Under the pieces are notes generated by a model that worked only from the letters and a program-made list of their open reading frames with translations, had not been told where the DNA came from and did not search any database. The translations under genes and the position numbers were made by a program. A stretch of 333 bases of DNA from Escherichia coli (GTDB lineage: Bacteria; Pseudomonadota; Gammaproteobacteria; Enterobacterales; Enterobacteriaceae), in the NCBI RefSeq assembly GCF_003334385.1, contig NZ_QOWN01000200.1; one strand, 5' to 3'. Shown in pieces: positions 1 through 333 of the stretch. Numbering within the stretch: the stretch's first letter is position 1; each line of letters opens with the position of its first letter.

Positions 1-212
1 CCGGCACGCCAGACCGCAGTCACACCGTGTATCACGGGATTACCGTCCGTGTCCGTCAGCGGGGTTTTGTTCACCAGGATACTCTGCAGTCCCTTCACCG
101 GGCCTTCTATCGGTCCCTCACCAATGGCATCAATCACACTCATCATCTGCGTGGATTTGAGATTATCCTTCGCCTCACGCGGTGTGTGCCCCTTGCCGCC
201 CCCTTTACCCAC
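1..212 (-). CDS. J: Phage host-specificity / central tail fibre (tail tip) protein, lambda gpJ-like; N-terminal 70 codons only, 3' end runs beyond the window
   Basis: Minus-strand translation from GTG at +212..210 gives MGKGGGKGHTPREAKDNLKSTQMMSVIDAIGEGPIEGPVKGLQSILVNKTPLTDTDGNPVIHGVTAVWRA with no stop before the window edge. This closely matches my memory of the lambda gpJ N-terminus (MGKGSSKGHTPREAKDNLKSTQLLSVIDAISEGPIEGPVDGLKSVLLNSTPVLDTEGN...). A purine-rich Shine-Dalgarno sequence lies just upstream. GC is about 59% by hand count. Start choice is by homology; the same frame stays open further upstream but contains no better start. Confidence 0.85.
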   Translation of the reverse strand, partial: MGKGGGKGHTPREAKDNLKSTQMMSVIDAIGEGPIEGPVKGLQSILVNKTPLTDTDGNPVIHGVTAVWRA

Positions 213-216
213 TCTG

Positions 217-228
217 TCCCCCTCTCCT
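217..228 (-). promoter_or_regulatory. Ribosome-binding site (Shine-Dalgarno) for the J-like CDS
   Basis: Minus-strand sequence AGGAGAGGGGGA (AGGAG at +224..228) lies 5-11 nt upstream of the GTG start at +210..212. Confidence 0.5.
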
Positions 229-255
229 GTCTGATGTCTGAATCTGTTTATGCCC

Positions 256-287
256 AAAAAACAACAGGCACCCCGGAGGATGCCTGT
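256..287 (-). terminator. Rho-independent (intrinsic) terminator, minus-strand orientation
   Basis: Minus-strand RNA reads 5'-ACAGGCAUCC-UCCG-GGGUGCCUGU-3': a 10-bp GC-rich stem with one G.U wobble and a tetraloop, followed at once by UGUUUUUU then GGG. On the plus strand the hairpin is preceded by an A-tract and not followed by a T-tract, so it is unidirectional for minus-strand transcripts. Confidence 0.65.
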
Positions 288-333
288 ATCATGACTGAAT
301 AAAAATTCTGAATATCTTCACATTTTCACAAAC

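Follow-up and report, generated by a model that had tools for sequence, protein, structure and literature searches.

Why would a structure with the look of a Rho-independent terminator stand directly before the host-specificity gene J of a lambdoid prophage? The late operon of lambdoid and Stx phages is transcribed by a Q-modified, terminator-resistant polymerase, as is established for lambda, and the tail genes I and J are presumed to belong to that single operon. The window analysed here, a stretch of 333 nt from Escherichia coli, covers the 5' part of J and the adjoining part of the I-J spacer. A preliminary description of this DNA noted a strong intrinsic terminator on the J strand and offered two origins for it, either the terminator of an inserted gene or a mark left in a prophage remnant. 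We compared the structure with its close relatives, with the sRNA unit that shares its spacer and with the corresponding junctions of distant phages.

Anatomy and stability of the hairpin upstream of J

On its minus strand the window leads from the spacer into the first 70 codons of J (V/MGKGGGKGHTPREAKDNLKST...), which begin with a GTG codon at 212-210 behind the Shine-Dalgarno sequence GGAGAGGGGG at 227-218; the gene is named gpJ in RefSeq and GenBank annotation. Within the spacer, a stem of six G-C pairs, three A-U pairs and one G.U pair is capped by a tetraloop and followed directly on its 3' side by the tract UGUUUUUU (Table 1). The 10-bp stem and tetraloop are as first described, whereas the "U7" of that account is in fact seven U within 8 nt, interrupted by a single G. 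The distance to J, given as about 45 nt, also holds, the T-run ending 43 nt and the stem 51 nt from the start codon. On the opposite strand the stem is followed by AUCAUGAC, which is no U-tract.

Table 1 Features of the window, of the PasB and sodC loci and of pre-J hairpins in other phages (positions refer to the window unless a locus is named)
Feature	Position	Strand	Sequence, basis or remark
Tail-tip/host-specificity gene J, 5' part	1..212	-	Translation resembles lambda J-type proteins
J leader with Shine-Dalgarno sequence	213..253	-	Direct reading of sequence
U-rich tail	254..263	-	UGUUUUUUGG, flush with stem 3' end
Predicted terminator hairpin	264..287	-	10-bp stem; consensus scan, folding, stem pairing in variants
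Hairpin 3' arm	273-264	-	GGGUGCCUGU
Hairpin loop	277-274	-	UCCG
Hairpin 5' arm	287-278	-	ACAGGCAUCC
Short lead-in	288..298	-	UCAGUCAUGAU; moves together with the window-type hairpin
CRP-like site	307..322	+	TCTGA-ATATCT-TCACA (other strand AAATGTGA-N6-TCAGAATTT); about 10 bp upstream of PasB -35
PasB predicted -35	325-330	+	TTCACA; promoter scan; -10 TATAAT and PasB gene beyond the window end
PasB unit	L001 5880-6009
PasB, published extent	L004 1762-1844 (E2348/69 1466261-1466343)
sodC	L006 840-1370		Reverse-oriented, third spacer type
Lambda hairpin, as DNA	L005 (J02459) 1463-1494; also L090-L092, L216		AAACCGCC-TGCG-GGCGGTTT + TGTCATTTATGG
HK106 hairpin (33% identical J)	Directly before J		GGCCACC-UUCG-GGUGGCU, then U6
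Serratia Bonzee hairpin (38% identical J)	Directly before J		AGCCCC..GGGGCU, then U7
Acinetobacter Acba_16 hairpin	Directly before J		AGGCGC..GCGCCU, then U6
T1-like hairpins: Shfl1, LF82-10, BHUENT2, GS156, JulesPiccard			(A)CCCGC..GCGGG(U) or similar, then U5-8
T1-like hairpins: Klebsiella 2811 and SXFY507			(A)CCCGC..GCGGG(U) or similar, then U5-8

The J-sense fold reaches -21.1 kcal/mol over 46 nt (z -3.7) and -18.7 kcal/mol over 41 nt (z -3.4), and none of 200 dinucleotide shuffles was equally stable; the reverse strand folds more weakly (-13.2 vs. -18.7 kcal/mol). These energies and the shuffles confirm the placement, strand and anatomy originally reported, and the proposed check of folding strength comes out in favour of the structure. 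With its GC-rich stem, tetraloop, stable fold, one-strand U-tract and pair-preserving changes among relatives, the element has, as far as its sequence tells, the textbook form of an intrinsic terminator on the J strand, and the I-J spacer around it is unusually long. It has in common with the intrinsic terminators of E. coli and phages the GC-rich 10-bp stem, the tetraloop, the flush U-tract, the intergenic position and the strand specificity. It differs from them in lying inside a presumed single Q-antiterminated late operon.

The consensus scan returned two terminator-like sites in the window, compared with 0.2 expected in shuffles. The second site (46-63, plus strand, tail to 73) is antisense within the J coding region; with a 5-bp stem, an 8-nt loop and GTTTTGTT it is weak, and it is probably due to chance. 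A search of Rfam 15 with the window gave no match at E <= 1, and the full I-J spacer gave chance matches below threshold only. Two other candidate identities were rejected. A 91-aa plus-strand ORF running across the hairpin (27-302) is the shadow ORF of J, which runs opposite to it, and the anti-sRNAs AgvB, AsxR and EcOnc03 of EHEC have a different common terminator (GCCCGAAC..TTCGGGC).

Close relatives and their mosaic spacers

Matches to the window were found in 1888 of 5426 complete E. coli genomes (coverage of at least 80% in 885) and in 150 phage records, with a best identity of 99.4%; their source is E. coli lambdoid and Stx prophages and phages. Relatives were collected as 80 viral contigs retrieved through the J N-terminus and about 120 more retrieved through the block upstream of the hairpin, and a peptide-pattern search of genome contigs, using narrow patterns, returned eight loci only. 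The hairpin element is intergenic in every match, so that the suspicion that it might form part of an intact coding sequence in close relatives is not borne out. Nor does it mark a prophage remnant, as had been suggested, since it is present in plaque-forming phages, namely the PhiR12 series and Stx2a phages; mosaic joints do flank it.

Comparison of lambdoid I-J junctions, recommended in the preliminary description, yielded 26 distinct window-type variants, among which the hairpin is kept by pair-preserving changes. Across these variants 98.5% of stem cells are paired, a value that drops to 32-48% once the 3' partners are shifted along by 1-3 columns. Pair 8 is C-G in 15 variants, U-A in eight, U.G in two and unpaired in one (a recombinant with C.A), and the basal pair is A-U or G.U; there is a two-sided change at one pair, with one-sided wobble changes at two pairs. 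The observed covariation score was reached by 1 of 500 shuffles, and the covariation is weak in depth because it comes from close relatives only and from a single two-sided pair. All wobbles (U.G at pair 8, as in the window, G.U at the stem base and a second U.G in L080) can pair as G.U only in the J-sense RNA; read from the other strand, each becomes a C.A mismatch. A T-run of at least four is kept in every variant despite unrelated downstream leaders. The pattern supports the view that selection may act on a J-sense RNA hairpin with its U-tract, held between two mosaic joints.

The window-type spacer measures 234-254 nt (about 250 nt in annotated relatives), compared with 60 nt in lambda, and its mosaic joints lie on both sides of the hairpin, the 5' one at 299/298 and the 3' one directly after the T-run. 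Upstream of the 5' joint is the shared sequence ...CAGAATTTTTAT (310-299), after which about half of the relatives continue with the window-type hairpin and about half with an unrelated segment of approximately 190 nt, here called type B. Behind the window-type hairpin there are at least four unrelated leader types, each tied to different J alleles. The window type has a GTG start and its own leader, and other J alleles have an ATG start and unrelated leaders; these differences past a shared hairpin place the 3' joint right after the T-run. Breakpoints immediately 5' and 3' of the element might mean that it is a functionless by-product of mosaic exchange between prophages, that is, a recombination joint or linker. 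We consider this very unlikely, because pairing is kept through C-G, U.G and U-A changes, the wobbles fit one strand only, and analogues of unrelated sequence occur at the same gene boundary in distant phages.

Type B is the commonest spacer among the viral contigs retrieved through J. It has a hairpin of its own about 105-140 nt upstream of J (GAAAACCCCGGUAUC-UGCU-GAUACCGGGGUUUC, 13 bp, -29.8 kcal/mol, z -7.5; L015, L071, L024 and about 40 further loci), which differs from the window hairpin and is even more stable. Its stem is flanked by both an A-run and a T-run, so that it may terminate in both directions. A third spacer type, of 851 nt, contains reverse-oriented sodC (Cu,Zn superoxide dismutase; 218 bits against NCBIfam SodC, cutoff 165) after a variant of the PasB sRNA gene discussed below, and has no sense hairpin near J (L006; also L008, L009, L012, L077, L085, L088 and L089). 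This architecture indicates that the hairpin is dispensable, and the insertion of sodC beside a PasB variant that the I-J gap is a repeatedly used insertion slot. Two loci with E. coli-type I-PasB-J DNA (93-98% protein identity) come from metagenome-assembled genomes named "Collinsella sp." (L086) and "Clostridiales bacterium" (L089); the occurrence of this DNA in Gram-positive gut assemblies is probably a matter of mis-binning or contamination.

The PasB unit in the I-J gap

PasB, a prophage-encoded sRNA that depends on Hfq, was described in EPEC E2348/69 (Pearl Mizrahi et al. 2021, PMC8550237), and is also the subject of a preprint by Zhu, Shabalina & Storz (2026, 10.64898/2026.05.13.724894). 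It is listed as an 83-nt RNA on the minus strand between E2348C_1436 and E2348C_1437, with AATCCCGCAGTGATCGCGGAGCT as its northern probe (Table S6, PMC8550237). The I-J spacer contains an exact match to the probe, and the whole window can be aligned to the E2348/69 locus, which shows that PasB is encoded antisense in the I-J spacer. A promoter scan of relative L001 predicts a sigma-70 promoter for PasB, TTCACA-16-TATAAT, with 11 of 12 matches, on the strand opposite to I and J. The unit's own terminator, on that same strand, abuts the I stop codon, and in most close relatives a PasB-family gene comes directly after I. PasB and the hairpin thus occupy opposite strands of one spacer, the hairpin standing upstream of the predicted PasB promoter; the window stops at the predicted -35, and PasB itself lies beyond it.

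PasB is absent from RefSeq and GenBank annotation. Read coverage put its published 5' end about 15 nt further downstream than the TATAAT box predicts, which means either processing of the sRNA or an imprecise coordinate. The log2 change of -6.8 given for PasB refers to delta-hfq vs. wild type. PasB-family genes vary strongly in body and promoter-proximal sequence (L011, L013, L062, L067, L072, L075, L024, L006), their constant parts being the terminator beside I and an upstream TGTGA..TCAGA block, and several sRNA alleles appear to occupy the one I-J slot. The CRP-like site departs from TGTGA-N6-TCACA at a single position, a match that chance would give 0.01 times per window, and is kept in all PasB-bearing architectures retrieved through J. 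PasB is reported to be higher in the "non-activating" condition, in which the CRP-repressed Spot 42 (Spf) is lower; activation of PasB by CRP through this site would fit. The main text of neither PasB paper mentions the PasB promoter, the CRP site or the J-side hairpin.

In the moron model of Hendrix and Juhala, a unit of promoter, gene and terminator is said to be inserted between conserved genes. The preliminary description invoked this model, in which the hairpin would be the terminator brought by an inserted same-strand gene upstream of J. Part of the proposal stands: the spacer is about 190 nt longer than that of lambda and does hold an inserted, independently transcribed unit, PasB, with its own promoter and terminator, and the I-J gap is a moron slot in which PasB, and sometimes sodC, has been inserted with its own signals. 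The hairpin as the terminator of that unit does not stand, since PasB is read from the opposite strand and stops next to I, leaving the hairpin outside the unit and upstream of its promoter. A sense-strand promoter or small ORF in the stretch from I to the hairpin was considered and rejected, as no promoter is predicted there and the ORFs of 25 and 32 aa are not conserved. Hairpins occur at the same position in lambda and in other phages without any insertion. A moron's terminator is on the same strand as the insert, downstream of it and absent without it, and the hairpin differs on each of these counts, so that we regard this origin as extremely doubtful.

The geometry of the locus raises another possibility, namely that the hairpin is the 3' end and Hfq module of a sense RNA (from the I 3'UTR or the spacer) that serves as cis-antisense partner or sponge of PasB. 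Any sense transcript ending at the hairpin must contain the full PasB complement, and a hairpin with a U-tail is the classical Hfq-binding module. However, there is no sense I-J or I 3'UTR entry in the E2348/69 RIL-seq data of all of Table S5 and part of Table S3, no sense promoter is predicted, and the hairpin is also found in phages without PasB. Such a role for the hairpin seems highly improbable to us.

Pre-J hairpins in other phages and a proposed function

The 60-nt I-J spacer of lambda, which lacks PasB, contains the hairpin AAACCGCC-UGCG-GGCGGUUU followed by UGUCAUUU (-16.5 kcal/mol, z -3.3), with the tail UGUCAUUUAUGG, about 20 nt before J. The earlier statement that lambda has no known terminator between I and J agrees with the annotation, but a terminator-like hairpin is there. 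Lambda-like Escherichia prophages have the lambda hairpin with a UCCG loop, and HK629, like lambda, has a T-tract hairpin just before J. These I-J hairpins are unmarked in the GenBank records of lambda, HK629 and HK106, although the HK106 record marks another rho-independent terminator nearby. Across HK106, Bonzee, Acba_16, the T1-like phages and lambda, the stems of the pre-J hairpins show no sequence relation. Sequence homology linking the spacer of lambda to the window block (a common CCUCCGGG core with the lead-in) was considered and rejected, as the local alignment scores were equalled by 342 of 2000 and 933 of 2000 dinucleotide shuffles; because shuffles align equally well, only positional and architectural equivalence is claimed. 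Equivalents in lambda and in phages whose J is only about 30-40% identical make the hairpin independent of the PasB insertion.

J homologues were sampled across the phage collection, where several of the T1-like examples are mutually related. Among the sampled lineages, all I-J spacers of at least 40 nt hold a pre-J hairpin, the sodC type excepted. Seven lineages lacked a pre-J hairpin, and in each of them gene I runs up to or into J (Mannheimia, Pantoea, Rhizobium, Vibrio, a Pasteurella prophage, Serratia Smarc2 and AV129). The recurrence is less surprising than the raw counts make it look, since phage genomes are tightly packed and any spacer is likely to hold a regulatory signal.

In most of the sampled T1-like phages (Drexlerviridae) a TATAAT or TACAAT box lies within about 10-15 nt past the T-run; such -10-type boxes were noted in the I-J spacers of L219, L226, L225, L229, L222 and L231. 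Hairpin and box together look like a terminator-promoter junction before the J homologue. The T1-like and window-type junctions both have a hairpin in the I-J spacer directly before J, with T6-8 in the former. The T1-like phages are lytic and mostly have the -10-like box after the hairpin, whereas in the window type nothing resembling a promoter lies between hairpin and J. T1-like phages are not known to rely on Q-type antitermination.

As the late operon is believed to be transcribed by a terminator-resistant polymerase, a terminator within it seems idle, and the hairpin might instead be an element of the late mRNA, either a barrier to 3'-exonucleases or a signal for processing, or else a standby or S1-type enhancer for J translation. 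The structure is conserved on the mRNA strand, and in lambda, HK106 and Bonzee only about 10-25 nt separate the U-rich tail from the Shine-Dalgarno sequence of J, both of which would suit such an element. Yet a stem-flush U-tract is kept in all lineages, and a nuclease barrier needs none; the window-type tail, about 30 nt from the Shine-Dalgarno sequence and 43 nt from the start codon, is far for an S1 enhancer; and the -10 box past the T1-like hairpins is typical of a terminator-promoter junction. A role in the late mRNA is thus possible but unlikely.

Our preferred reading, to which we assign a probability of about 0.6, is that the hairpin and U-tract would form a Rho-independent terminator or attenuator of J-sense late-strand transcription at the I|J boundary. 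Similar hairpins at the same place in related phages, lambda included, favour ordinary operon punctuation over the terminator of an inserted gene, and the pre-J hairpin may be a recurrent "punctuation" of siphovirus tail clusters wherever a spacer parts I and J. During lytic growth the site would be passed by the Q-modified polymerase, as read-through is to be expected where the late-operon polymerase is terminator-resistant. In a lysogen it would stop or strongly reduce unmodified polymerase arriving from upstream, e.g. from moron promoters or spurious starts, and J and the downstream genes would thereby be kept Q-dependent. The PasB unit, with promoter, sRNA and own terminator on the opposite strand, would be a separate module between the I stop codon and the hairpin. 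We infer in-vivo termination, Q read-through and a physiological benefit, the read-through from the occurrence of the hairpin in Stx-converting and lambda-like phages together with established lambda biology.

I and J are hardly expressed in E2348/69 lysogens (baseMean about 5 and about 15, vs. 480-1080 for PasB), so that no effect of the site can be read from the expression tables. Table S2 of Tree et al. is uninformative here, as its filtering removed every peak that lay within 100 bp of a CDS on the same strand. Neither a description of an I-J terminator nor 3'-end, Term-seq or reporter data for the site turned up in the literature searched, a search that did not extend to the older lambda literature. 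A bolder version of the terminator reading, which we think quite unlikely, is that the pre-J terminator is a regulatory checkpoint that makes the host-range module Q-dependent and turns unmodified rightward transcription into a U-tailed anti-PasB RNA. If true, the level of a virulence-associated sRNA would be linked to leakage or induction of the late operon.

No current model is challenged by the pre-J hairpin. PasB is already known, and what the comparison adds, a pre-J hairpin in phages ranging from lambda to the T1-like group, is modest and testable. For annotation, it means that the long gap between I and J in many E. coli and Stx prophages can be read as a PasB gene on one strand and a putative late-strand terminator on the other, neither of which is marked in RefSeq records. 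The recurrence of terminator-like pre-J hairpins in lambda, T1-like and other phages suggests that the I|J junction is an old transcriptional boundary before the large host-range gene, and such a boundary would be relevant to the engineering of J and tail modules and to the prediction of prophage gene leakage.
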